DNA of 52,007 nt from an uncultured Gammaproteobacteria bacterium (GCA_964400835.1 CAYNWD010000002.1:25604-77610), one strand, 5' to 3'; counted from the stretch's first letter, positions 8,322-46,733 are shown. Numbers and translations: made by a program. The notes: generated by a model from the letters alone, not told the origin.

Positions 8322-9620
8322 TTATACTCTGCCAATTCCATAATACATGAAACCTAATTTTTTAACAGCTACCGGATCATAGACATTTCGACCGTCAAAC
8401 AATACCAGGTTTCTCATGCCCTTTGCAAGACGGACCAGGTCAATCTGCCGAAATTCATTCCATTCGGTAAGCACAAGAAGCGCATCGGCGCCTTTTGCTG
8501 CCTCATGAGCACTTTTGACAAAACGAACCGATTTGGGCAGCAATCCTTTGGCATTGTCCATGGCGACCGGATCATACGCGACAATTTTTGCGCCATATTT
8601 GACCAGCTCGGTCAAAATCTTTATCGATGGCGCCTCCCTCATGTCGTCGGTATTGGGTTTAAAAGCAAGCCCCAAGACGCCCAGCGCTTTTCCTTTGATA
8701 TTCCCTTTAAAGTGTTGCATCACCTTGCCAACGAAATGAAGCTTCATTTGTTTATTGATCTCGTCGACTGCCGACAGGAGCTGGAAATCATATCCCTTTG
8801 ACTTTGCAATCGCGATAAGCGCTTTCACGTCTTTGGGAAAGCAGCTGCCGCCGTAACCGACACCCGGATACAAAAAACTTCTCCCGATGCGCCGGTCCAA
8901 CCCTACGCCGTCCAAAACTTTTTCAACGTCCGCGTCGACCTTTTCCGCAACCAGAGCAACGGCGTTCGCAAAAGAAATTTTGGTCGAAAGCATGGCGTTA
9001 CTTGCATATTTAATGCGTTCAGCCGTTTCGGTATTACGCGGAACAGCCTTGCTGTTAATCGGCTTATGAAACTCCAAAAGAATTTCCTGCGCGCGGTCCG
9101 ATGATGTGCCGATGACGACCCGGTCGGGGTGAAGCGTATCGTCGATTGCCGTCCCCTCGCGCAAAAATTCGGGAACGGACGCATAGGCAAACGAGGCGCC
9201 GCTCGGTTTTTGTTTATTGATAATCGCGACAACTTCCTTACCGGTTCCGGGAGGCACCGTACTCTTGGTCACAATGATTTTATATCCGAACAGGTGCTTC
9301 CCAATCTCCTCTGCCGCGGCAAATACGGAAGAAAGATCTGCCTCACCGTTATCCTTGGGAGGAGTGCCCACACAAATAAAAACAATTTCCGACGGTCCGA
9401 CTGCCTCGGCATAATCAAGTGTGAACAGTAATCGTTTCGCGGCAACGTTTCTGGCTACCAACTCCGAAAGGCCCGGCTCGTAAAACGGCGCTATGCCGCG
9501 CTGAAGTTTTTCAATCTTTTCCTTCGTACGGCCGACCACCCAGACGGTATTTCCTAAATCGGCAAAAACCGCTGCGGTGACGAGCCCTACGTAGCCATGA
9601 CCGATAAATGCAACAGTCAT
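8322..9620 (-). CDS. ugd: UDP-glucose 6-dehydrogenase
   Basis: 432 aa. N-terminal IGHGYVGLVTAAVFADLG, catalytic GGSCFPKD motif, C-terminal UDP-binding domain. Confidence 0.9.
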   Translation of the reverse strand: MTVAFIGHGYVGLVTAAVFADLGNTVWVVGRTKEKIEKLQRGIAPFYEPGLSELVARNVAAKRLLFTLDYAEAVGPSEIVFICVGTPPKDNGEADLSSVFAAAEEIGKHLFGYKIIVTKSTVPPGTGKEVVAIINKQKPSGASFAYASVPEFLREGTAIDDTLHPDRVVIGTSSDRAQEILLEFHKPINSKAVPRNTETAERIKYASNAMLSTKISFANAVALVAEKVDADVEKVLDGVGLDRRIGRSFLYPGVGYGGSCFPKDVKALIAIAKSKGYDFQLLSAVDEINKQMKLHFVGKVMQHFKGNIKGKALGVLGLAFKPNTDDMREAPSIKILTELVKYGAKIVAYDPVAMDNAKGLLPKSVRFVKSAHEAAKGADALLVLTEWNEFRQIDLVRLAKGMRNLVLFDGRNVYDPVAVKKLGFMYYGIGRV

Positions 9621-9667
9621 ACAAAAAAGTATGGACGCGCAAACAGATACCCTCCGCGCGTCCTTAT

Positions 9668-10552
9668 CTACCCATTATATTCCATCTCCTTCACCTCTCG
9701 CAATCCTTCCTCAAATGTCCGCATGTGTACCCCAAGAGCGCGAATTTTATCATTTGCGAGTGCCGCAAACCGGGGTATCGGCGCACGATTTTGAAAAAAT
9801 TCTGCAAACGTAGTTTTCGTCACCAAGGAAGGCGAAAATTCCCATATGCGGGCAACCATGCAGGCTGCGTCAAAGGGTGATATCGCCGAACTTCCGACAA
9901 CATGATACAGTCCGTGCGCATTAGTTTCCATGCACTTATTGAGCGCTGCAGCAATATCATCCACAAACGTCGGGACAAAAAGCTGGTCGGTGGCAGCGGC
10001 CAGCGAAAGACCCTGGGAGAGCCGCTCAAGCATTTTATGAACAAAATCTTTTTTGCCGACGAATACTCCCCCGGGATATGCGCGGTACGGGTTGGCAATG
10101 CGAAAAACCAGAGCCCGTTCGCCGAGCGAAAGAACCCGTTTGGCTCCTTCGTGCTTTGTCTTGGCGTACCAACCCTGCGGATTCGGTGCGTCCTCCTCCG
10201 TATAATTTTTTTTCTTCCCGTCAAACGCATAATCCGTATCGACATAGACAAGTTTTTTCCCCGTTTCCCGGACCGCCTCAACGATATTTTGCGTCGCGTC
10301 AACATTTATCTTCCAGCTAACACTGTGCTCGCCCAAATTCTTTTCTTTTTCTGCCCCCTGCACATCTGTGTATGCGGCAAAGTGAAACATCCACGGTGCC
10401 TCGGATGCCCGTACGGCTTTTTTGACCACGTCATAATTCGTAATGTCCACGCCTGTTTCAAGACTGAGGTCGCGGAAAACGTGCTTGCCGCGAAGAATTT
10501 CCACAACACGCGACCCGACTAAGCCCGAAAGGCCGGTTCCGATAATATTCAT
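9668..10552 (-). CDS. SDR-family sugar-nucleotide reductase, dTDP-4-dehydrorhamnose reductase (RfbD)-like
   Basis: 294 aa. GTGLSGLVGSRV nucleotide-binding motif and YAKTKHEGA (YxxxK). ATGA overlap with rfbB. Confidence 0.65.
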   Translation of the reverse strand: MNIIGTGLSGLVGSRVVEILRGKHVFRDLSLETGVDITNYDVVKKAVRASEAPWMFHFAAYTDVQGAEKEKNLGEHSVSWKINVDATQNIVEAVRETGKKLVYVDTDYAFDGKKKNYTEEDAPNPQGWYAKTKHEGAKRVLSLGERALVFRIANPYRAYPGGVFVGKKDFVHKMLERLSQGLSLAAATDQLFVPTFVDDIAAALNKCMETNAHGLYHVVGSSAISPFDAACMVARIWEFSPSLVTKTTFAEFFQNRAPIPRFAALANDKIRALGVHMRTFEEGLREVKEMEYNG

Positions 10553-37559: not shown

Positions 37560-38567
37560 TCAATGAGCCCCAAGAAAATCCCGTACGAACGTTGCAGCGG
37601 TCTTTCCCAAAACTGAAGTATTGTATCCGCCTTCCTGTACAAGAACCGTGGGTATGCCAAGGGCAGCAATTGCGCGGGCCATACGGGCAAAGTACGTGGT
37701 GGTTAATCGCAAGCCGCCGATGGGATCCGCCTCGTGAGCATCATACCCCAGGGACACAACCAAATATTCCGGGCGAAACCTGCGAATACGGGAAAGAGCA
37801 ACTACCAGAGCCCGATGATAGCTGCGATCCGACGTCCCAAGAGGAAGAGGAAAGTTTATATTAAAACCGCGGCCTTTGCCCTCTCCCTGTTCACTGGCGC
37901 GCCCGCTGAAGTATGGAAATTTCTCAGAAGGATCAGCATGAATATTTACAACAAACACATCACTGCGGCCATAGAATATGTGCTGCGTGCCGTTCCCGTG
38001 GTGCACATCCACATCAAGAACGGCCACGCGCCCCCGTGTGCTTAAGTATTCAGCGGCAATTGCTGCGTTGTTGAAATAACAATACCCTCCCATGCGCGAT
38101 GCTTCTGCGTGATGCCCCGGGGGACGGCAGAGCGCATATGCAACCCGCTCACCCCTGCGAACCAATGATGCAGCGGTGAGGGCAACCATGGCAGATCCGT
38201 GGGCGGCCGCATACGTAGTGTTATTTACCGGTGTATACATGTCAAACGTGTATTTTCCACGAAGACCAACGGTATTAGTAGTTTCCTGCCCTTCCCTAAA
38301 GGGAAAAACTGATGGATATACATAGGCACTCCCAGCTTCCCTTCCGGCAGTTGCAAGGTAATCTATGTACGCGCGGTCGTGCACGCGCTCAATCCACGAC
38401 CGGGGAAATCTCCTGGGCAGGATAAACCTGTTACCGGGCAATTCTTCAAGCGCCCTCTTGATGTTCTCAATCCGCTCCGGCACTTCAGCATGTGGATCTC
38501 TTTTGCCGTCAAAAATTTCGTTCGGCGGATGGTGGCGTACGTGGTGCGATGGATAAACGATAATCAT
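37560..38567 (-). CDS. Histone deacetylase-family enzyme (acetylpolyamine/acetyl-lysine amidohydrolase, AcuC-like)
   Basis: CRPPGHHA, DVDVHHGNGTQ and the GYD motif. 335 aa. Confidence 0.85.
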   Translation of the reverse strand: MIIVYPSHHVRHHPPNEIFDGKRDPHAEVPERIENIKRALEELPGNRFILPRRFPRSWIERVHDRAYIDYLATAGREAGSAYVYPSVFPFREGQETTNTVGLRGKYTFDMYTPVNNTTYAAAHGSAMVALTAASLVRRGERVAYALCRPPGHHAEASRMGGYCYFNNAAIAAEYLSTRGRVAVLDVDVHHGNGTQHIFYGRSDVFVVNIHADPSEKFPYFSGRASEQGEGKGRGFNINFPLPLGTSDRSYHRALVVALSRIRRFRPEYLVVSLGYDAHEADPIGGLRLTTTYFARMARAIAALGIPTVLVQEGGYNTSVLGKTAATFVRDFLGAH

Positions 38568-39631
38568 ATGCCTCCTTTCATCGCGTAACTGTAATGATTG
38601 GTCAGGATGGAAAACGGAAGATGCATGAAGGTGAAATCTCTCAGTCCGCGGGGCTCAAGTCCGTCGACGACTTCCACATTTTGAACCAGTATTTGTCTCG
38701 GTCCTCTCCCGCCTTCCCGATCAGGAACTTCCATATGTGTCGCCCACCCCACATGGTGCGCACCCGAACGGTAGTTCGTCTCCGCGACGATAAGCGGTGG
38801 CAACTCACTATCCTGCAAATCTCTCACGATCTGCTCATTGAGGTACGCGACCGCACCAGCCATGAGCCCCCGGCGCTCGTTACCCGGGCGCGTACGCCAC
38901 TCGGTGCTCTCAACGATCGGGATCGCTCTACCGTCCCCCAACGGTATGTCCAGCCGCTCTGCCATAGCTATGGAAAAAACAGTGTCGCCCGAGACCGCTG
39001 CGCTGAACCATTTCGTCCGCATCCCCAATCCTGTTTGCAAATTGCCCACCTGACCGGGCTCCCATCCAAACGTCTCAACCCATAATGCATCTATCTGAGG
39101 AATCATCCAATCCGCTATCCTGTCTGCAAAAACGATGCCATCGTGTCTAAGCCTACGGATTCTTTCCTGAGGTCCAATTGTACTGGTTGGCCGTTGGGAG
39201 GTGTGTGCGACCATCACCTGAATACCCTCTAAGGCCCGTCTGTCTGTGTGATTCATACCAAACATCACCAAGTGAGCCTGAATCTCCCCTTGCCAATTAA
39301 CAACGTGTGTACCGGCTTCCAGGTATTGATTCAGTTTCTCGTTTCCCAAAACCCCCTCATATACCTCCGGTGTCACCAGATATCGCCCGACGCAACGCGT
39401 CGCAAGACCCCTCCCAAGAGCATCTTGTGCGTACCTATGTTGACGGCCCAAAAAAGCCACATCGCCAACGAGTCCAAACCGCGCATTGAGATAAAGCCTG
39501 TCGTGTGAACGATGCTCCAATCCTAAACTGCCCGTACTTGTAAGAATTTCTTTCTCTGTCATAGGTTTTTCCATAACCCCGCTCGAAGCGGGATTGATGG
39601 TTAGTAAACTCGCTTCTCGGAATCTGCTCAT
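38564..39631 (-). CDS. Hypothetical protein (about 336-355 aa), translationally coupled to the HDAC-family gene; possible GNAT-like C-terminal half
   Basis: The stop overlaps the HDAC ATG (ATGA). No confident domain. The segment ESTEWRTRPGNERRGLMAGAVAYL is reminiscent of a GNAT acetyl-CoA loop. The start is ambiguous: 39631 lies inside a hairpin loop, and 39574 is an alternative. Confidence 0.45.
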   Translation of the reverse strand: MSRFREASLLTINPASSGVMEKPMTEKEILTSTGSLGLEHRSHDRLYLNARFGLVGDVAFLGRQHRYAQDALGRGLATRCVGRYLVTPEVYEGVLGNEKLNQYLEAGTHVVNWQGEIQAHLVMFGMNHTDRRALEGIQVMVAHTSQRPTSTIGPQERIRRLRHDGIVFADRIADWMIPQIDALWVETFGWEPGQVGNLQTGLGMRTKWFSAAVSGDTVFSIAMAERLDIPLGDGRAIPIVESTEWRTRPGNERRGLMAGAVAYLNEQIVRDLQDSELPPLIVAETNYRSGAHHVGWATHMEVPDREGGRGPRQILVQNVEVVDGLEPRGLRDFTFMHLPFSILTNHYSYAMKGGI

Positions 39632-40412: not shown

Positions 40413-40441
40413 ATTGTACCCAACTTCCCTTGCCCTGTCAA
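40413..40441 (-). promoter_or_regulatory. greA promoter TTGACA-17-TACAAT
   Basis: The minus strand reads TTGACAGGGCAAGGGAAGTTGGGTACAAT. Its -35 abuts the -35 of the divergent tRNA-Glu promoter. Confidence 0.7.
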
Positions 40442-40458
40442 GGCCAAGCTGATAGAAT
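40430..40458 (+). promoter_or_regulatory. tRNA-Glu promoter TTGCCC-17-TAGAAT
   Basis: The -10 ends 9 nt before the first tRNA nucleotide. Confidence 0.6.
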
Positions 40459-41994
40459 CAAATCCGCGCCGCGTTCGTCTAGAGGCCCAGGACGACAGGT
40501 TCTCAACCTGTAAATCACCGGTTCGAATCCGGTACGCGGTACCAAAGTTGATTTTTGATCCAATGACTTCTGTATTAGAGCAAAAGGAAGGCCTAATTGC
40601 TCGGTTCCAATAAGTCCGTCCTTATAGACAATACCCTTTGGAAACAATAAGGCTTGGAACATCTGTTTGTGTCCAAAGGTTGCTTCTAACCAAATTGAGG
40701 CTACGTTATTAAATAGGCTCTCGGAAAAGGCAACTAAATAATCTATATCAGTCTCTTCAGTCCTTGCTTCTGATCGCTCAACTTCCTTGATAACAAGCTC
40801 TTCTTTAATAGCCTGATTCTGCTCTCTGTAATCGTCATCACTAATAATGCCCTCTAGATTTTTGCGAACCAGCTTTGTTTGTAGCTCTTTTAGCACAGCG
40901 ATATTTCCATCTATGCGTTTCACCGAATCAATAGCCTCGCTTTGTTTCTGCTTCCAAACGTCATATAGAACCTCTTGAAACAATCGTTGAAACTGCTTGT
41001 TTGGTTGAATTCTCTTTAAAGCATCAAAGAAAACTTGTTCAAACAGTTCTTTGGAGACTCTGGTTTTGCCACACAAGCAATGATAATACGCATATCGTTT
41101 ATTCCTTCCTCTAGATCGGCTAGCAGTTAAACCTTTACCACAGTGTTCACATTTAGCAATATTCTTCAAAGGAAAATCAGGATTATTTAATAATCTAGGA
41201 ACAGCAGTAAAAGATACGCCTTCTCGTATTTGTTGGACTTTGTAGAATAATTCTGGGCTTATGAGTTTTGAATGAAGGCCATCTATATCCACTCCCCAGT
41301 CTTTGACCGTAAGACGGCCAATGTAGAGCTTATTTTGAAGCATATTAGCGACCGCTTGAGTAGATATTCGGTTACCGTTTTTTGTTCTGACACCCCATGA
41401 GTTCAGCTTAGATGCTATATCTTTTAATCTATGACCCCCTTGAGCGTACACTTCAAATGCCTTTTTGATATACGGTGCTGTCTGTTTATCAATAACTAAA
41501 CCTGCCTTTGTATTCTTGTAACCCAAGGGAGCACCCCATGCCCATAACCCTTGGTTGACCCTTTCCTTTAATCCTTCTTTTGTTCGCTCCGCTCTAATAT
41601 CGTTATCTAGCTGTGCAACCGCTGCATAAATAGTCCCCATAAAATTGCCCTGGGAAGTATCGTCTATTGGCTCTGTAACGGATCTAAGAATAATATTATG
41701 CGCTATTAAGGTGGTCTTGATTGCAAGATAGTCTGCAGCTATACGAGAAACGCGATCAATTTTATGAACTAAAACAACGTCAGTTTCTTTTCTATGTTTA
41801 TTGCAAAATTCAAGAAGCTTAAGTAATTGTGTTCTGTTTGCGCTTTTCGCTGATTCTCCTTGCTCTTGAAAGACTCCAACAACTTCCCAGCCTTGTTTAT
41901 TGGCGTACTCTCTACAAATATTTTCCTGATAAGTTAAGCTATACCCTTCAACTTGTTCTTTTGTTGATACGCGGGTATAAATAACAACTTTCAT
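40438..41994 (-). CDS. Large serine recombinase (integrase); the last ~35 codons read antisense through tRNA-Glu
   Basis: MKVVIYTRVSTKEQ (catalytic Ser), recombinase domain, zinc ribbon CEHCGKGL...YYHCLC, coiled-coil region. The ORF continues past the compositional boundary at 40545. Confidence 0.85.
   Translation of the reverse strand: MKVVIYTRVSTKEQVEGYSLTYQENICREYANKQGWEVVGVFQEQGESAKSANRTQLLKLLEFCNKHRKETDVVLVHKIDRVSRIAADYLAIKTTLIAHNIILRSVTEPIDDTSQGNFMGTIYAAVAQLDNDIRAERTKEGLKERVNQGLWAWGAPLGYKNTKAGLVIDKQTAPYIKKAFEVYAQGGHRLKDIASKLNSWGVRTKNGNRISTQAVANMLQNKLYIGRLTVKDWGVDIDGLHSKLISPELFYKVQQIREGVSFTAVPRLLNNPDFPLKNIAKCEHCGKGLTASRSRGRNKRYAYYHCLCGKTRVSKELFEQVFFDALKRIQPNKQFQRLFQEVLYDVWKQKQSEAIDSVKRIDGNIAVLKELQTKLVRKNLEGIISDDDYREQNQAIKEELVIKEVERSEARTEETDIDYLVAFSESLFNNVASIWLEATFGHKQMFQALLFPKGIVYKDGLIGTEQLGLPFALIQKSLDQKSTLVPRTGFEPVIYRLRTCRPGPLDERGADLILSAWP
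40468..40544 (+). tRNA. tRNA-Glu (anticodon CUC), CCA encoded
   Basis: Folded by hand. Acceptor GCCGCGU/ACGCGGU; D arm GUCU-AGAGGCCCA-GGAC; anticodon stem ACAGG/CCUGU with loop UUCUCAA; T arm ACCGG-UUCGAAU-CCGGU; discriminator A; CCA. Confidence 0.92.
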
Positions 41995-42004
41995 GGGTTG
42001 AGGA

Positions 42005-42202
42005 TCACTTTTCATATTGGGTGTTCTTGGGTGGGGAGTCAATAACCCCAAGTTGTTTATTGGAACCTTTTGAGCCTACAACTGAAGATATTATTTCTGC
42101 TAAAGAGTAAAATTGAGCCAATAAATCTTGAACATCTCTGTCCGACATGCTCCTATACTCACCCCCTAATATTTTTCTTGCTTTGCTTACAGTAACCGCC
42201 AT
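42005..42202 (-). CDS. Small hypothetical protein (65 aa) upstream of the recombinase, possible directionality/DNA-binding factor
   Basis: Trimmed to MAVTVSKARKILGGEYRSMSDRDVQDLLAQF. Its own promoter lies upstream. Function is an inference from position only. Confidence 0.4.
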   Translation of the reverse strand: MAVTVSKARKILGGEYRSMSDRDVQDLLAQFYSLAEIISSVVGSKGSNKQLGVIDSPPKNTQYEK

Positions 42203-42296
42203 AAAAAAAGCACTACCTTTCCAGACCAATCCAGGTCAGGGAAAAGTAATGCCTCGCGGCACGGTGGCTCAATGCCCCTATTACTGTATGAAATCA

Positions 42297-42325
42297 ATAC
42301 TACCGCGTCATTTAAAAGTTGTCAA
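42297..42325 (-). promoter_or_regulatory. Promoter TTGACA-17-TAGTAT for the small ORF plus recombinase
   Basis: The minus strand reads TTGACAACTTTTAAATGACGCGGTAGTAT. Confidence 0.65.
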
Positions 42326-42346
42326 TTTTATAAAGGGGATATGCCT

Positions 42347-43210
42347 CTATTGGGTAACAAGTGGTTTATTTGATCTTGGTTTCTCTCCTTTTTTTAGTCC
42401 AGTGAGTGACGGAAATATGAGATAATCTTTTTTTAGAATTGAGCAGTATATTTCAAAAACACTGTCAAAAGATAAAAGTGTAAAGTATTGCGGACACTCC
42501 AAAGCTATAACCGCGTCTCCAAGTTTTAAGCATCTTGTTTTCATATCTGATCGTTTATAGTCAGCTTTTATTTCAGAAAAGATACTTAGGTGATTTTTAA
42601 AATCTCTATGAGTACCGTATTTACCGTTAACATTTTTATCCAAAAACATATCAAGAATAGCGCTCTGTTTTATCCAAAATTTCTCTTGACCACATTGACC
42701 AACACAACGAATATCTTCAGTGAACTTATGGAATCCATCTTCGGTGAATTCAAGGTCTACCTTGTTAGTTTTGAAACCAGAGTTGTTAGCCACATATCCA
42801 TCAATTATTTCTTCAAATAACCAGTAGAATTGCAAGATATAGCTGTAAACAATAGCAAGTGCCTTATCTTTGTTATCAATTGCCTCTTTGTTCTTAATAA
42901 GTTCGCTAAGAAATAACAGAATTTCTTTTAAATCTCTTGTAGAACGACTTACGTTACTAAACACATTAATTGCGTCAGAAAGTGATGCTTCTTCGCGTAA
43001 TATAAAATAGAAATTGATTAATGGAACAATGAGTGCCTCCTTAAACTCGCGAAAAATAAAAAGGGAAGAAAATTTCTTTGAATTAACTAAAATACTTTCT
43101 ATGAGCTGTTTCTGTGAAGGGTGACCCAGCAATCGCTTTATTTGAATTGAAGTCTCAAGATAATACTGGTCTTTAGGACTCGCTTCATGTGGTTTTCTTT
43201 TCTTCTTCAT
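42347..43210 (-). CDS. Island gene C: hypothetical 287-aa protein, possible split PIN-like nuclease fold
   Basis: N-terminal YYLETSIQIKRLLG and C-terminal LGDAVIALECPQYFTLLSFDSVF resemble the first and last acidic motifs of PIN domains, separated by a long insert. Weak, by eye only. Confidence 0.5.
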   Translation of the reverse strand: MKKKRKPHEASPKDQYYLETSIQIKRLLGHPSQKQLIESILVNSKKFSSLFIFREFKEALIVPLINFYFILREEASLSDAINVFSNVSRSTRDLKEILLFLSELIKNKEAIDNKDKALAIVYSYILQFYWLFEEIIDGYVANNSGFKTNKVDLEFTEDGFHKFTEDIRCVGQCGQEKFWIKQSAILDMFLDKNVNGKYGTHRDFKNHLSIFSEIKADYKRSDMKTRCLKLGDAVIALECPQYFTLLSFDSVFEIYCSILKKDYLIFPSLTGLKKGEKPRSNKPLVTQ

Positions 43211-43853
43211 AATGCTCTTCGTACGGAAATAAGTTTAATCCGGTTTTTTGAAGGCTGATCGTGGCGATTTTAACGTCTTTCAATTCAATGTCATTACTCA
43301 ATAGCAATGCAGTGACTGAAACCAACGCCTTCGCTTGTTGGACGTCTATATTACGCCATAAATTAAATCTCATTATTGAATCAACAGTGCTCACCAACAT
43401 TGAGAAATGTTCATCATTACCAGTATAATTCCAAATTTCATTAATTAAATCTTTAACTTTAGAATAATACATTGCGCTTTCTGGCTGGCCTAAATTAGTC
43501 GCGAATTTATTCAATTCCTCAAACATCGTCTGAAGAAGAGGTTGTCTTTTTATTTTCCTATATGCCAAAGATTGGCGTACATCGGCTGGCTGCGCAGTTG
43601 CTGGTTCGTCAATTTGCATCTGACTTGCCAGGGTTTGTGGTTTTTCCGTTTTAATAACAACTGGCTCACTATAAGTGCCTATTGGCATCCATTCTGCAGA
43701 TGAGATTTTCGGGGTTTCCTCTTGGTGTAAAGGGTATACATTATCACCAAACACAATTGAAGTTCTTGAGTGACCTGAATATTCAGCTACTTTTAACGAA
43801 GCCGCATAAGTAAAGTCTTGATTTAAGTGGTAATGAATTGGTACGGTGCTCAT
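43185..43853 (-). CDS. Island gene B: hypothetical 222-aa protein, no recognisable domain
   Basis: ATGA overlap with gene A and a 26-nt overlap with gene C. N-terminal beta-like part, low-complexity linker, helical C-terminal half. Confidence 0.5.
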   Translation of the reverse strand: MSTVPIHYHLNQDFTYAASLKVAEYSGHSRTSIVFGDNVYPLHQEETPKISSAEWMPIGTYSEPVVIKTEKPQTLASQMQIDEPATAQPADVRQSLAYRKIKRQPLLQTMFEELNKFATNLGQPESAMYYSKVKDLINEIWNYTGNDEHFSMLVSTVDSIMRFNLWRNIDVQQAKALVSVTALLLSNDIELKDVKIATISLQKTGLNLFPYEEHYEEEKKTT

Positions 43854-44536
43854 GCTTTTGAGGGAATCAGTTTTAAAGATTCTTGAACTGTTGAACTAAC
43901 TAATTTCCTTATTTCTGTTATGTATCTATTAAGATCCCTAGCTCTACAATCTTTATCTTTATATCCATCAACATCCAAATAAGTCATAACTTCTGAAAGG
44001 CCTTCAGAATCTAACTCAAACTTTGTATTTGGGCCAAATTTAGCGAGGCCCTCATCTTTTGAAACTGGTCCGAATAAATAATGAAACTTATAGTTCTCTC
44101 TTTCAAAATCTGCACTAAAAACAGCGTCAGAGATTTTCTGACCAACTATAGCCTCAATTTCCTTATCTTTTGGATAAAACTTTTCTTGAAATAAAGAAAC
44201 CAATTCTGGATATTTTAGTGCAGTTTTATTCAAAAGAGTGTGTCTTATACCTACCCTCAAAATATCGGTAAGTGGGAGTTTTGAAGTATAAGTGGTGATA
44301 ACGAATTCAAGAAAAGCGAAAAATTTATCCTCATCTTTAACATCGTCACAAATAACTGCTAATCTTTTGTGTTCAAGAAAGCATGCGAGTTTTTCTTTCT
44401 TGTCAAAGAGATCTATCTTAAGAGCATTCGTTTCCCAGTCGGGAAGCGTTTTATTGATTTCAGCCCCTATTTCATCTTTGAATCGGTAGAATAGCAGATT
44501 GGGCTTTATGACAAGCTCCACAACGATTCGTTTCAT
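43850..44536 (-). CDS. Island gene A: hypothetical 228-aa protein (size and an RVGIRH motif recall the uncharacterised TIGR04255 family; unverified)
   Basis: First gene of the operon. Leaderless-type promoter directly upstream. Confidence 0.5.
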   Translation of the reverse strand: MKRIVVELVIKPNLLFYRFKDEIGAEINKTLPDWETNALKIDLFDKKEKLACFLEHKRLAVICDDVKDEDKFFAFLEFVITTYTSKLPLTDILRVGIRHTLLNKTALKYPELVSLFQEKFYPKDKEIEAIVGQKISDAVFSADFERENYKFHYLFGPVSKDEGLAKFGPNTKFELDSEGLSEVMTYLDVDGYKDKDCRARDLNRYITEIRKLVSSTVQESLKLIPSKA

Positions 44537-44543
44537 CAGTCTG

Positions 44544-44572
44544 ATTATATACCTCTAAGACTTAGTATTCAA
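44544..44572 (-). promoter_or_regulatory. Promoter TTGAAT-17-TATAAT with a CTAAG-N-CTTAG palindrome (44555..44565) in the spacer; the -10 ends 7 nt before the gene A ATG
   Basis: The minus strand reads TTGAATACTAAGTCTTAGAGGTATATAATCAGACTGATG. Confidence 0.7.
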
Positions 44573-44598
44573 GAAAACTCTACCAAAATATCAGTGCT

Positions 44599-44802
44599 CT
44601 ATTTTATTAAGGTTTCTAAAGCAGTATTGAGAGCCTTAGCGATCTTGGTTAATGTCTTAATGGTAGGATTGCGCTTGCCCAGTTCAATTGAGATAACAGA
44701 CTTAGGATCCACTTTGGAAAATTCCGCTAACTTTTCTTGAGTTAGGCCTTTTTGCCTACGAAGGTTCCGAATTCTTTCACCAAGCTTTTTGTAACTTGCC
44801 AT
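44599..44802 (-). CDS. XRE-family helix-turn-helix transcriptional regulator
   Basis: GERIRNLRRQKGLTQEKLAEFSKVDPKSVISIELGKRNPTIKTLTKIAKAL is a canonical Cro/CI HTH. 67 aa. Confidence 0.88.
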   Translation of the reverse strand: MASYKKLGERIRNLRRQKGLTQEKLAEFSKVDPKSVISIELGKRNPTIKTLTKIAKALNTALETLIK

Positions 44803-44890
44803 ATTGACTCAAATATGGCGTATATGCCAGACTACGAACAGGAAATATATTCCAGATTTATTGATAAAAATACTGCTACGACAATATAAA

Positions 44891-45187
44891 ATGATGAAAA
44901 AACTAGAATACAATTTTGAGGACAGCTTATTTGAGAATATTTTTAATATCCTTCTTATAGCTAGTGCCGTCTCTGTGATAACTAGTCTCTCTTCATTTCC
45001 TCTTTTAAGTGCAATTGAATTTATCGTGGGTTTGTTTAATAAAGATGCGTTTGCTTATGTGACTGATAAATATGAGCCATTCAGGATTAGTGTATTCAGC
45101 GGTTTTTTGGGTTCTATTTTTACTTTCGCGTATTTGACAGTTAATGAGTGGCATAAATCCCGTCAGAGAGGGGGTGAGGCTACATGA
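44891..45187 (+). CDS. Small 2-3 TM membrane protein, unknown function
   Basis: Start taken at the ATG (MMKKLEYNF) rather than the TTG at 44804. Hydrophobic segments ILLIASAVSVITSL and VFSGFLGSIFTFAYL. Confidence 0.45.
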   Translation: MMKKLEYNFEDSLFENIFNILLIASAVSVITSLSSFPLLSAIEFIVGLFNKDAFAYVTDKYEPFRISVFSGFLGSIFTFAYLTVNEWHKSRQRGGEAT

Positions 45188-45387
45188 TGAAATACGCTAA
45201 GTACATTCTTGTGGCAGCGATTGCTGCGTTTTTAGGTTGGGCGTGGGGTGATAACAATGTGCGTTCAACAGTAAGTATGAACCTACAAAACGTCATTTCC
45301 CGTAGTGTTGAAGCTCCTAATGGAAGATGTATTACTACAGAAGATTTCAAGTTAATTGAATTTTTTTCTAATCCAACCTGGAAATAA
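45184..45387 (+). CDS. Small single-TM protein, unknown function
   Basis: ATGA overlap with the previous ORF. N-terminal anchor YILVAAIAAFLGWAW. Confidence 0.45.
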   Translation: MMKYAKYILVAAIAAFLGWAWGDNNVRSTVSMNLQNVISRSVEAPNGRCITTEDFKLIEFFSNPTWK

Positions 45388-45427
45388 AGAAGGGTTAAGA
45401 CTAAAGAAAATAAAGCACTTTTTATTT

Positions 45428-45453
45428 GTGTGTATGAGGATTACACACTTTTC
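45428..45453 (+). terminator. Intrinsic terminator after the two small plus-strand ORFs
   Basis: GTGTGTA-tgaggat-TACACAC followed by TTTTCT. Confidence 0.6.
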
Positions 45454-45791
45454 TGTATGTTTAGCTTCAATTCTACACCCACTTGCACGCAACTACACGT
45501 AACAATCATGTAACACTTGCGTACACACATATACCAAACACGTCCGCGCTGTGCGTACGTGTTAACCTCAATGATAAATCTCGCTGTGAAAATTGAACTA
45601 CTCCTCCCCTAGGTGCCTTTAAACAGGATTCGTATTAGAATAAAGAATGGTAATACTTTGGTTGACTAGTTAGGCACGTAGCTAGATACAAACGCCCACT
45701 GCCTATATGAAGCTAGAAGCGGGTTCCAATTCTCAATAACGTGGGGCACAAAAGATTTAGTGCAATCTCTATACTTTTCTCCTACCATTTC

Positions 45792-46733
45792 ATGGATTTC
45801 TATTCACGCACGAGTCCTGCCCGGAAACGTCGTTGGCCCCGCTTCTTTTTTGGGCTTGGGCTTCTGGTAACTATCGGTTTTATGCTCACGCGCAGCCTGC
45901 GGCCCGACCGGATCATCTCTCCCATCCCGGATGACCCGCAACCTGCAACCGGGTTTTTCTCGCTCTTTGCAAAGAAAAAAACTCCCGATGAACTAAAGCG
46001 CCGCATCCGGGAGCTTGTCGGCACGAATTGGAAAAACTACTCGGTCTTTGTAAAAGACCTGCGGGGCGGCTTTGCCATGGGAATAAATGAAAATGTCATC
46101 TATACCGCAGCGTCTCTGTATAAAGTCCCGGTCATTGCGGCACTCTACAGCGAAGCACAAAAAGGAACCATCGACCTGGATAATCGGATCACGCTGCAGC
46201 AAAAAGACATCCAGGACTTCGGCACCGGATCTATCCGCTATGATCCGCCGGGATCTATCTATTCGCTCAAAACACTTGCCAAACTCATGATCAGTCAGTC
46301 TGACAATACCGCCGGCTTTATGTTGGGCCAGCAGATCGTCGGGTACACGCGCATCGGCCAATACCTCGCATCATGGGGTATGACGCAAACCGATATGGCA
46401 AATAACAAAACATCCAATAGTGATATGGCTATCATTTTTGAAAAGATATTTAACGGGTCTATCACCAACCAGGCGCAAACCCTTGAAATGCTTTCGTTTT
46501 TTAAAGATACCGACTTTGAAACCCGGCTGCCCGCTCTGCTGCCTGCGGGCACCACGGTATACCACAAAATCGGAAATGAAACGGCTGTCGTCCATGACGT
46601 GGGTATTGTCACCCAGGGCAACACGGCCTACTACATCGGTATTCTCTCCTCGGACGTACCCAGCGAGGAGGAAGCAGACATTCTGGCAGGGCGGATCTCA
46701 AAACTCGTGTACGACTACCTGGTTACGCAGTGA
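45792..46733 (+). CDS. Class A beta-lactamase-like serine hydrolase / PBP-type peptidase, membrane anchored
   Basis: Trimmed to MDFYSRTS. Motifs SLYK (SxxK), SDN, KIG (KTG-like). N-terminal TM segment. Confidence 0.75.

Follow-up and report, generated by a model that had tools for sequence, protein, structure and literature searches.

A 5.2-kb AT-rich stretch directly behind a tRNA-Glu(CUC) gene is an integrative element that carries a large serine recombinase (LSR) gene and is inserted at the 3' end of the tRNA in a Patescibacteria genome. The attachment site lies inside the 3' end of the recombinase gene, so that the gene is split by the insertion. According to the literature that we consulted, this enzyme class is not known to target tRNA genes. 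The mobility of this particular copy, any role of the exchanged protein tail and the function of the cargo are inferred.

Composition and gene content of the island

The window, i.e. the whole analysed stretch of 52,007 nucleotides, was first examined for base composition. The GC content was 0.369 for positions 40545-45740 and 0.510 for the rest of the window, and no other 5.2-kb segment fell below 0.483. All ten 1-kb segments with a GC content under 0.43 were located within 40501-46000. The tetranucleotide distance peaked over the island at 0.039, against a background of about 0.010, and a maximum-likelihood fit with two change points placed these at 40540, i.e. at the tRNA 3' end, and at 45805. 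Thus, the AT-rich island described in the earlier note is real. Its gene content was also as described there (an LSR, a small ORF with a promoter-like site, three ORFs without a family, an XRE regulator and two small ORFs), although several details had to be corrected. The element ends are 40543 and 45749 (5207 bp) instead of 40545 and 45790. The LSR ORF does not merely abut the tRNA but reads antisense through the whole tRNA gene to a stop at 40438-40440. The two small membrane ORFs, which had been called divergent, are co-oriented with each other and divergent only from the XRE gene. The last 350 bp, which had been regarded as non-coding, are not all non-coding. The following features were assigned:

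40468-40544, + strand: host tRNA-Glu(CUC), mature bases 1-73 ending at 40541
40520-40567, + strand: attL, consisting of the B arm and the P' arm
40438-41994, minus strand: LSR gene as it stands in the integrated state, 518 aa from MKVVIYTRVS
42005-42202, minus strand: conserved small partner ORF, 65 aa from MAVTVSKARKILG, open back to 42229, ending 10 nt before the LSR start
42297-42325, minus strand: promoter-like site (TTGACA, 17-nt spacer, TAGTAT) upstream of the small ORF and the LSR
42347-44536, minus strand: cargo cassette of three overlapping genes encoding 228 aa (43850-44536), 222 aa (43185-43853) and 287 aa (42347-43210)
44599-44802, minus strand: XRE-family helix-turn-helix regulator, 67 aa
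44891-45387, + strand: two small, apparently hydrophobic ORFs, the first of about 98 aa from the ATG at 44891 (open from 44804), the second of 67 aa (45184-45387), followed by a terminator-like hairpin at 45428-45448
45484-45567, no strand: cluster of short inverted repeats (TGCACGCAA/TTGCGTACA, TAACACTTGCGTACA/TGTGCGTACGTGTTA, AACACGTCCGC/GCGTACGTGTT)
45666-45749, minus strand: displaced 3' exon of the LSR gene, 27 codons (45669-45749), VPHVIENWNPLLASYRQWAFVSSYVPN, and a stop at 45666-45668
45722-45775, + strand: attR, consisting of the P arm and the B' arm
45792-46733, + strand: host beta-lactamase-family gene, the first host gene to the right and not part of the element

The tRNA was detected by ARAGORN as tRNA-Glu(CTC) at 40468-40544, and Rfam RF00005 matched 40468-40541 with 60.3 bits. 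The encoded 'CCA' (40542-40544) is partly made by the insertion, because the native trailer in relatives (fetched loci, here numbered L; native trailers in L006 and L018) reads AC|AAAA. The beta-lactamase-like gene (PF13354, 1.8e-47) is syntenic with lon; a GTG start at 45741 lies inside attR, and the ATG at 45792 is the more likely start.

The long ORF matched the resolvase-type catalytic domain PF00239 (1.5e-33, residues 22-168) and the recombinase domain PF07508 (2.1e-17), whereas the zinc-ribbon domain PF13408 (1.9e-4) scored 22.2 bits, just under its cut-off of 25.3. PHROG 95 (integrase) matched at 1.8e-92 and the C-terminal domain of the A118 integrase (4kis) at 6.7e-11. The protein is identical to P0001 (homologous proteins are numbered P). 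The serine S10 (numbering of P0001) is invariant in 41 and in 64 aligned relatives, and the four zinc-ribbon cysteines are invariant or nearly invariant. The AF2 model of the homolog P0022 shows beta strands followed by long paired helices at 333-412.

Homologs of the small partner ORF lie directly upstream of the LSR in 13 of the fetched loci, e.g. L001-L003, L031, L038, L039, L071 and L197-L201 (tblastn 1e-5 to 1e-11, supported by an alignment), but no Pfam or PDB match was obtained. The promoter-like site in front of it is weak evidence, since the total number of such sites in the region was no greater than in shuffled sequence. The XRE regulator (PF01381, 1.7e-15) has counterparts in the same place in L002, L003, L197, L198 and L199. 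The two small ORFs gave no family hit in Pfam, PHROGs, PADLOC or NCBIfam, and their membrane character is read from the sequence alone. The inverted-repeat cluster gave no Rfam match.

The three cargo proteins likewise had no hit in Pfam, PHROGs, PADLOC or NCBIfam, and in PADLOC only the XRE regulator matched generic HTH models. However, the same three genes occur in the same order in L202, at 45, 38 and 59% identity. The family of the 287-aa protein has 241 representatives, with E55, D232 and D249 invariant and an N-terminal L-E-T-S motif. Three of 44 members gave weak hits to the PIN family PF01850 (best E 0.0019). The AF2 model has a pLDDT of 94.8, and the top Foldseek hits were PIN proteins (HARP-type RNase P, VapC), but only at E values of 0.9-3 and TM scores of 0.23-0.45. 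This protein is possibly a PIN-like nuclease.

Attachment sites and the split recombinase gene

We next compared the locus with related genomes and sister elements, the search for an empty site having been named beforehand as a test of the insertion. In L006 and L011, from related Gottesmanbacteria genomes, greA, tRNA-Glu(ctc), the beta-lactamase-like gene and lon are contiguous, which is an empty site, although these relatives are only about 75% identical in GreA and Lon. No same-species empty site and no circular junction was found for this exact element, and exact searches for the predicted attP (...GGTTCCAATTCTCAATAACGTGGGGCAC|CAAAGTTGATTTTTGATCC...) and the predicted attB (...GGTTCGAATCCGGTACGCGGTAC|AAAAGATTTAGTGC...) gave 0 hits.

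In attL, the T-arm motif GGTTCGAATCC is at 40520-40530, followed by the acceptor 3' strand GGTACGCGGT at 40531-40540 and the crossover dinucleotide AC at 40541-40542. These two bases are A73-C74, i.e. the discriminator base and the next nucleotide. The P' arm CAAAGTTGATTTTTG... starts at 40543 and also encodes ...DQKSTL of the LSR. In attR, a T-arm mimic GGTTCCAATTC at 45722-45732 is followed by a 15-nt spacer TCAATAACGTGGGGC, the crossover AC at 45748-45749 and the host trailer AAAAGATTTAGTGC..., which starts at 45750; this B' arm resembles the native trailer of the empty site in L006. AC is the only dinucleotide shared between attL and attR in both the window and L001. In relatives with discriminator G the equivalent dinucleotide is GC, which is palindromic, and therefore the exact cut position may differ by a base in those clades. 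The mature tRNA is unchanged and no tRNA segment is duplicated: there was no second match to the last 23 nt of the tRNA with up to 3 mismatches, and blastn-short found nothing longer than chance near the right end.

The T-arm motif thus lies 10 nt from the crossover on the host side, and its mimic, followed by an acceptor-like stretch, lies 15 nt from it on the element side. The same distances were found in the sister elements L001, L002, L003 and L198 and in eight distant elements from other phyla with other tRNA targets. This corresponds to the 5-bp attB/attP offset of the zinc-ribbon-domain (ZD) motif described for the Listeria phage integrase (PMC3783163), as a comparative inference and not from biochemistry. 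The P' and B' arms show no clear dyad symmetry with P and B.

Since attP lies inside the LSR gene, integration replaces its last 27 codons. Bases 40543-41994 of the gene belong to the element, whereas bases 40441-40542 are antisense tRNA plus the DNA upstream of the tRNA and encode the substitute tail PRTGFEPVIYRLRTCRPGPLDERGADLILSAWP. The native tail exon at 45669-45749, which is also the attP arm, joins the LSR in frame across the AC crossover once the element is circular. Homologous tails lie at attR of L001, L002 and L003a and at the C-termini of the natural proteins P0022, P0027, P0038 and P0041, and the same tail type occurs in the eight more distant elements. The tail exons are intact, homologous and in frame at attR in four integrated elements. 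Altogether, eleven other elements (twelve with this window) carry the tail exon. The conserved tail comprises 27-35 aa (x5-6 W-N x L x3 L x2 W ...), and pN/pS was 0.27-0.9 in 14 of 15 pairs. L198 carries the undivided gene and attP and has a 29-bp terminal overlap, so it is a circular 12.2-kb molecule. In 66 of 73 genome loci from several phyla an antisense tRNA overlaps the LSR 3' end, and at least 100 of the top 120 homologs end in antisense-tRNA peptide.

Interpretation and alternative readings

The earlier note had read the island as a minimal integrative element or a prophage remnant carrying cargo, and this interpretation is partly supported. The integrative element with cargo agrees with the empty sites, the intact LSR at one end, the conserved attP arm at the other end, which is shared with sister elements in other genomes, and the recurrence of the cargo cassette as a unit elsewhere. 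The note missed that the recombinase gene runs across the attachment site and is split, that the supposed non-coding end holds its last exon, and that no direct repeat of the tRNA is expected or present.

Our preferred explanation, held with high confidence, is a small integrative element of AT-rich origin that its own LSR inserted into the chromosome of a Gottesmanbacteria-like Patescibacterium. Sequence comparison shows the crossover at A73-C74, the half-sites with their shifted T-arm motif, the position of attP within the LSR gene, and a core module of small ORF, LSR and nearby XRE regulator shared with sister elements whose cargo differs. By contrast, recombination of attP with attB by this enzyme and its need for a directionality factor in excision are inferred. 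It is likewise inferred that this copy can still excise, since the LSR, both arms and the tail exon are intact; that the 65-aa partner, the only candidate, is a directionality factor or cofactor; that the tail swap and convergent transcription from the tRNA gene make the enzyme behave differently in the integrated and free states; and that the three-gene cargo, with its possibly PIN-like protein, is an addiction or defence module.

It seems possible, although rather unlikely, that the element arrived in this way but is now an immobile relic, which the recombinase with its substitute tail cannot excise while the tail exon drifts. The tail of the window is the shortest (27 aa), departs from the family consensus after ...RQW and could be decaying, no circular junction or same-species empty site was found, and L003b shows that decayed P arms do persist. 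However, the LSR ORF, catalytic serine, zinc-ribbon cysteines, partner ORF, P-arm motif, spacing and tail reading frame are all intact, and the strong GC contrast (37% against 51%) suggests little amelioration, hence recent arrival. A somewhat stronger, but still tentative, alternative is that the overlap of the LSR frame with attP and the tRNA is incidental, that the enzyme works the same with either tail, and that the tail region is conserved only as the DNA binding site. The W-N codons are the same bases as the T-arm mimic, so conservation of the protein and of the DNA site cannot be fully separated. AF2 places the tail after a disordered linker with low confidence (pLDDT about 40-50), so that a structural role is not supported by modelling, and substitute tails vary from 8 to about 40 aa among relatives. 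On the other hand, conservation and open reading frames extend 75-105 bp from the crossover, well beyond the 25-bp half-site described for LSRs (PMC3783163), pN/pS is 0.27-0.6 in several pairs, stop codons fall at similar positions, and no stop precedes the crossover in almost any family member, including those from phyla that are not AT-rich.

A prophage that has lost its structural genes is very unlikely and not supported. PHROGs classes the LSR and the XRE regulator as phage-type, and some family members sit on predicted viral contigs (L117, L118, L120, L129), but PHROGs matched nothing else in the island, and no structural, packaging or lysis gene was matched in Pfam or PHROGs, nor did Pfam and NCBIfam give anything for the other ORFs. 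Both ends are intact, eleven other elements of 4.5-11 kb have the same compact layout, sister elements of this size likewise with both ends intact, and no island-like composition occurs in the window outside 40501-46000. Native DNA of unusual composition can be practically dismissed; only the absence of a same-species comparison leaves room for it, and it is contradicted by the empty sites, the sharp change points at the att sites and the sharing of recombinase and att arms with elements in unrelated hosts.

Comparison with known systems

Phage-type large serine integrases (Listeria A118/LI, TP901-1, phiC31, Bxb1, SPbeta SprA) have the same order of catalytic domain, recombinase domain and zinc ribbon with a long coiled-coil, short att sites with a 2-bp crossover and no long direct repeats, and a zinc-ribbon DNA motif 5 bp further from the centre in attP than in attB. 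Here, however, the target is the 3' end of a tRNA gene with the T-arm serving as the recognition motif, attP lies inside the integrase coding sequence so that the C-terminal 27-35 aa differ between the free and integrated states, and a conserved gene of about 50-65 aa, in the loci where it was found, is directly upstream and co-oriented. Sequence identity to the solved integrases is low (E 1e-10 to 1e-14 over single domains).

Like the tRNA-associated genomic islands with tyrosine integrases (Islander-type), the element lies next to the 3' end of a tRNA gene, with the integrase gene at the tRNA-proximal end, variable cargo and a tRNA that stays functional. The enzyme family is different, as no tyrosine recombinase domain was found in any island ORF (Pfam, PHROGs, NCBIfam), and because the crossover is at the discriminator base, no tRNA fragment is carried or duplicated. 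In the SSV1-type (fusellovirus) integrases of archaea, attP also lies within the integrase gene, so that integration into a tRNA gene partitions the gene. Those are tyrosine recombinases of archaeal viruses whose gene is split into two large parts, whereas here only the last 27-35 codons are exchanged and the catalytic and DNA-binding domains stay in one piece.

SCC elements are also small cassettes moved by LSRs (Ccr recombinases) that lack transfer genes of their own and insert at the 3' end of a conserved housekeeping gene without inactivating it. CcrB was the best NCBIfam match (5.6e-42), but the scores of 144 bits for CcrB, 88 for CcrC and 85 for CcrA are far below the respective cut-offs of 900, 900 and 700. 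In the element described here the target is a tRNA and not rlmH, a single recombinase is present, and the hosts are Patescibacteria and many other phyla.

The island and its host locus

The window averages 49.6% GC, whereas bases 40545-45740 have 36.9% GC and the rest has 51.0%. No other 5.2-kb window drops below 48.3% and every 1-kb window under 43% GC lies in 40501-46000. The tetranucleotide distance to the rest of the window peaks over the island at 0.039, compared to a background of about 0.010, and a two-change-point likelihood fit placed the borders at 40540 and 45805. The gene content was as listed in the earlier note, with a large serine recombinase, a small ORF, three unknown genes, an XRE regulator and two small membrane proteins. 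The observation of an AT-rich island of about 5.2 kb directly after the tRNA was confirmed. The following features of the window are referred to below:

38564-39631, a 355-aa host ORF just left of greA
40438-41994, minus strand, ORF of the large serine recombinase (LSR)
40468-40544, tRNA-Glu(CTC), the only tRNA in the window; the Rfam tRNA model covers 40468-40541, ending at the discriminator base
40543-45749, the element, 5207 bp
40603-40611, a third copy of GGTTCCAAT, inside the LSR gene
45484-45567, a dense set of short inverted repeats
45741-45792, alternative starts of the beta-lactamase-like host gene

The beta-lactamase-family (bla-like) gene to the right of the island has relatives at 41-63% identity in Patescibacteria genomes, several of them labelled Candidatus Gottesmanbacteria. 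In L006 and L011, two of the loci fetched from these relatives, greA, tRNA-Glu(ctc), the bla-like gene and lon are contiguous, and only 54-157 nt separate the tRNA from the start of the match to the bla-like gene. These are empty sites. These relatives are only about 75% identical in GreA and Lon; the comparison shows that the island is not ancestral but does not provide a same-species empty site. Other relatives (loci L005, L009, L012, L013 and L018) have unrelated inserts of 1.2-3.8 kb in the same place, and the position is therefore a hotspot. In L018 (390-1477), from another Patescibacterium, an intact tRNA-Glu(ctc) is followed about 940 bp later by a second, partial tRNA-Glu copy, which is the signature of a different, tRNA-fragment-duplicating kind of island. 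The longest ORF of the bla-like gene starts at a GTG (45741) that lies inside attR, on element-derived sequence; the in-frame ATG at 45792 is the more likely start. The 355-aa host ORF at 38564-39631 has no Pfam match and only a 30%-identical counterpart at the same position in L012.

Attachment sites and the split recombinase gene

The LSR ORF has the resolvase, recombinase and (weakly) zinc-ribbon domains. It matches PHROG 95 integrase at 1.8e-92 and the A118 integrase C-terminal domain at 6.7e-11, and it keeps the catalytic serine and the zinc-ribbon cysteines that are invariant in the family. Its reading frame does not stop before the tRNA but runs antisense through the whole tRNA gene, so that the last 33 residues (PRTGFEPV...) are antisense tRNA and upstream DNA.

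The same arrangement occurs across a large family. At least 100 of the 120 best homologs (36-62% identity) end in peptides such as GFEP, GIEP or GVEP, which are the antisense translation of the tRNA T-arm. In three loci fetched by protein identity, an antisense tRNA overlaps the LSR 3' end: tRNA-Lys in L001 and tRNA-Glu(ttc) in L002 and L003. Among 84 further genome loci, 73 had enough downstream sequence to judge, and 66 of these have an antisense tRNA at that position, covering 18 isoacceptor types. The labelled genomes include Patescibacteria, Acidobacteriota, Myxococcota, Planctomycetota, Verrucomicrobiota, Bacteroidota and others, and some members lie on predicted viral contigs.

A direct repeat of the tRNA 3' end was searched for at the right border and none was found, as is expected for a crossover at A73-C74. 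Instead, the right ends of the window's island and of the islands in L001, L002 and L003 share a motif, GGTTCCAATTC, followed by 15 nt, then AC and then host DNA. At the tRNA end the arrangement is GGTTCGAATCC (the T-arm), followed by 10 nt (the acceptor 3' strand), then AC and then element DNA. In the window, attL reads GGTAC/CAAAG and attR reads GGCAC/AAAAG (the slash marks the crossover), whereas in L001 the two junctions share only TCAC. The one dinucleotide common to both junctions in both elements is AC, that is, A73 and C74. In relatives with discriminator G the equivalent dinucleotide is palindromic, so the cut may sit a base away in those clades. The host sequence that follows AC at attR (AAAAGATTTAGTGC...) resembles the native trailer in the empty site of L006 (AAAAAAACTTCTGC...), and likewise the L001 trailer resembles the native tRNA-Lys trailer of L002. 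The element therefore spans 40543-45749, the mature tRNA is untouched, and the encoded CCA is a by-product of the junction.

Several other readings of the junctions were considered. The conserved 'L-V/A' codons were first taken as antisense CCA, but this reading was dropped because L002 and L003 have no encoded CCA. In L001, a 14-nt repeat (TCACGGCTCACAAT) was first taken as attR. The true attR lies about 100 nt further inside the element and has the P-arm motif, the in-frame tail and a B' arm that matches the native tRNA-Lys trailer; the 14-mer is probably a relic. A third GGTTCCAAT copy lies about 58 nt from the crossover inside the LSR gene, in the same orientation as the P-arm motif, both in the window (40603-40611) and at the equivalent position in L001, L002, L003 and L031 (a further relative). 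It was considered as part of the att site, but it is too far from the crossover and codes for the conserved I-G-T residues. Exact searches of the genome and metagenome collections for this element's predicted attP junction (...CAATAACGTGGGGCAC joined to CAAAGTTGATTTTTGATCC...), its predicted empty attB (...CCGGTACGCGGTAC joined to AAAAGATTTAGTGCAATC...) and its attL gave 0 hits, and nothing shows that this particular copy is still mobile.

To find the far ends of more distant elements, each locus was searched for its own T-arm 11-mer (up to 3 mismatches), followed by 15 nt and the same dinucleotide. This recovered homologous far ends in eight loci (L056, L060, L064, L068, L078, L091, L098 and L103), whose targets are tRNA-Ala, Glu, Ser and Met and whose elements are 4.5-11.4 kb.

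The recombinase gene is split by integration. The crossover AC forms the first two bases of a valine codon in the LSR, and reading on from that codon into the P arm at attR gives an open, conserved tail.

Table. Tails read from the crossover codon into the P arm at attR, each ending at a stop codon.
Element: Tail
Window: VPHVIENWNPLLASYRQWAFVSSYVPN
L001: VTRTSENWNQLLASLEAWRQVLNPSFTPSIAYNY
L002: VPQIIENWNQIRSSLEQWQTIIRPSLTPAFVY
L003: VPQMFENWNQIRASLEQWKQILQPSLIPALQLNYH

The same kind of tail ends the natural proteins P0022, P0027, P0038 and P0041, all homologs of the LSR, and it also appears at the far ends of the eight distant elements and in a gene on a 46-kb viral contig (L118). P0022 lies on a 12,166-bp contig (L198, Logan SRR22000240_7499; 31% GC) with a 29-bp exact terminal overlap; this contig is a circular molecule with an undivided gene and an intact attP, in which no replication or packaging gene was recognised. 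In L199 (GCA_964597145.1, 10001-21566), two related LSR genes lie about 9 kb apart, each with its own small partner ORF. The first (P0038) is in the undivided free form although it sits inside a 243-kb contig, whereas the protein sequence of the second (P0039) ends in antisense-tRNA residues; the locus stops before the 3' end of that gene, so no tRNA was seen there. In L003 (5811-6580), two P arms lie 738 bp apart and flank a 203-aa methyltransferase gene. The inner arm has an intact tail exon and the outer arm has an internal deletion (VPLMFKNWKEILQPSL...), suggesting successive use of the same tRNA or a left-over cassette.

Pairwise pN/pS over the first 24 tail codons is 0.27-0.9 in 14 of 15 pairs, and conservation reaches 75 bp or more from the crossover, beyond the 25-bp half-site of known LSRs. 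The free element therefore encodes an LSR with this tail (in the window, 40543-41994 joined to 45669-45749), whereas the integrated element encodes an LSR whose tail is replaced by antisense-tRNA residues of variable length. The AF2 model of P0022 (mean pLDDT 87) puts the crossover codon in a low-confidence linker after the zinc ribbon and predicts a helix (HWNQLLSNLRAWSN) with low confidence, so the tail of this free-form homolog was not placed with confidence. Modelling neither supports nor excludes a role for the tail.

Partner ORF, regulator and cargo

A small ORF (65 aa from MAVTVSKARKILG in the window, about 50-65 aa in relatives) lies directly upstream of the LSR and is co-oriented with it in every close relative examined. 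It has no significant Pfam or PDB match. Small directionality factors or cofactors are found with other LSRs, and by this analogy we infer such a role for the small ORF. An XRE regulator sits nearby in most of these elements. Between the terminator of the small membrane ORFs and the LSR tail exon lies the set of short inverted repeats at 45484-45567, built on ACACG/CGTGT and GCGTAC.

The three overlapping cargo genes (228, 222 and 287 aa) match no model in Pfam, PHROGs, PADLOC or NCBIfam, and they are absent from all sister elements. They recur in the same order on another fetched locus, L202, at 45, 38 and 59% identity, and are therefore a unit. The 287-aa protein belongs to a family with 241 representatives; E55, D232 and D249 are invariant. 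Three of 44 relatives gave weak PIN hits. The predicted structure is confident (pLDDT 94.8) and its best Foldseek matches are PIN proteins, but not significantly so. A PIN-like nuclease within an addiction or defence cassette is a reasonable guess and no more. For the other cargo ORFs no family was found even at E up to 5.

Sister elements carry other cargo. The element in L002 (4714-11454; GCA_964521295.1, Patescibacteria, 936-kb contig), of about 6.7 kb at tRNA-Glu(ttc), carries a 684-aa Piwi-domain (Argonaute-family) protein followed directly by a 392-aa SIR2_2 protein, which looks like a short prokaryotic Argonaute defence pair carried as cargo. A methyltransferase is present in L003, a peptidase and a SEC-C protein in L001, and an SRAP protein, a Y-family polymerase and a 588-aa protein with a weak reverse-transcriptase match in L198. 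In addition, the element at tRNA-Lys in L001 encodes, at 9333-9761 just upstream of the small ORF and the LSR, a 142-aa protein that matches GP3_package (PF16677); some of these elements might therefore hijack phage packaging. Altogether, these elements appear to move accessory genes among very small genomes.

Relation to known serine integrases

The functional meaning of the tail exchange and the roles of the small ORF and of the cargo are all inferences, in contrast to the site layout and the split gene, which were read from sequence comparison. One far-reaching possibility is that the island belongs to a widespread but, as far as we could find, undescribed clade of LSRs that uses the universally conserved tRNA T-arm and acceptor end as attB. 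In this view, the gene is cut by its own integration, so the enzyme would carry a conserved C-terminal helix only when the element is free and would lose it when integrated. Together with the always-adjacent partner protein of about 50-65 aa, this would form a built-in sensor of integration state that sets the direction of recombination without separately regulated expression of a directionality factor. We consider this reading as a whole unlikely on present evidence, although it is not excluded. If the tail exchange matters for function, it would be a new way of controlling directionality.

The att sites are readable from sequence alone and follow the 5-bp shift rule described below, and they are therefore a natural test set for how LSRs tell attB from attP. 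Recombinases that land on highly conserved tRNA ends without damaging the tRNA could serve as integration tools in organisms that lack engineered landing pads, including uncultivated Patescibacteria.

Literature searches found no description of tRNA-targeting LSRs or of this clade, in a library that is incomplete, so this is absence of evidence only and we do not regard the finding as categorically new. It has been stated that serine integrases do not target tRNA genes (PMC4383910), and a large survey of LSR attachment sites never mentions tRNA (PMC10083194). A streptococcal survey contrasts tyrosine integrases, which use 3' ends of tRNA and housekeeping genes, with serine integrases, which use internal sites of dispensable genes (PMC7563491). 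The island studied here and its relatives show a whole clade of LSRs that does target tRNA genes, in at least Patescibacteria, Acidobacteriota, Myxococcota, Verrucomicrobiota, Planctomycetota and Bacteroidota.

The arrangement of the att sites agrees with the known site logic of serine integrases. For the Listeria phage integrase, the DNA motif bound by the zinc-ribbon domain lies 5 bp closer to the centre in attB than in attP, while the recombinase-domain motif stays in the same place (PMC3783163). Here, the T-arm-like 11-mer is 10 nt from the crossover in the B arm and 15 nt in the P arm, and the bases next to the crossover are alike in both arms (..G.GGY-AC). In the distant elements of L056 and L103, the P arm looks like the tRNA 3' end with five extra bases.
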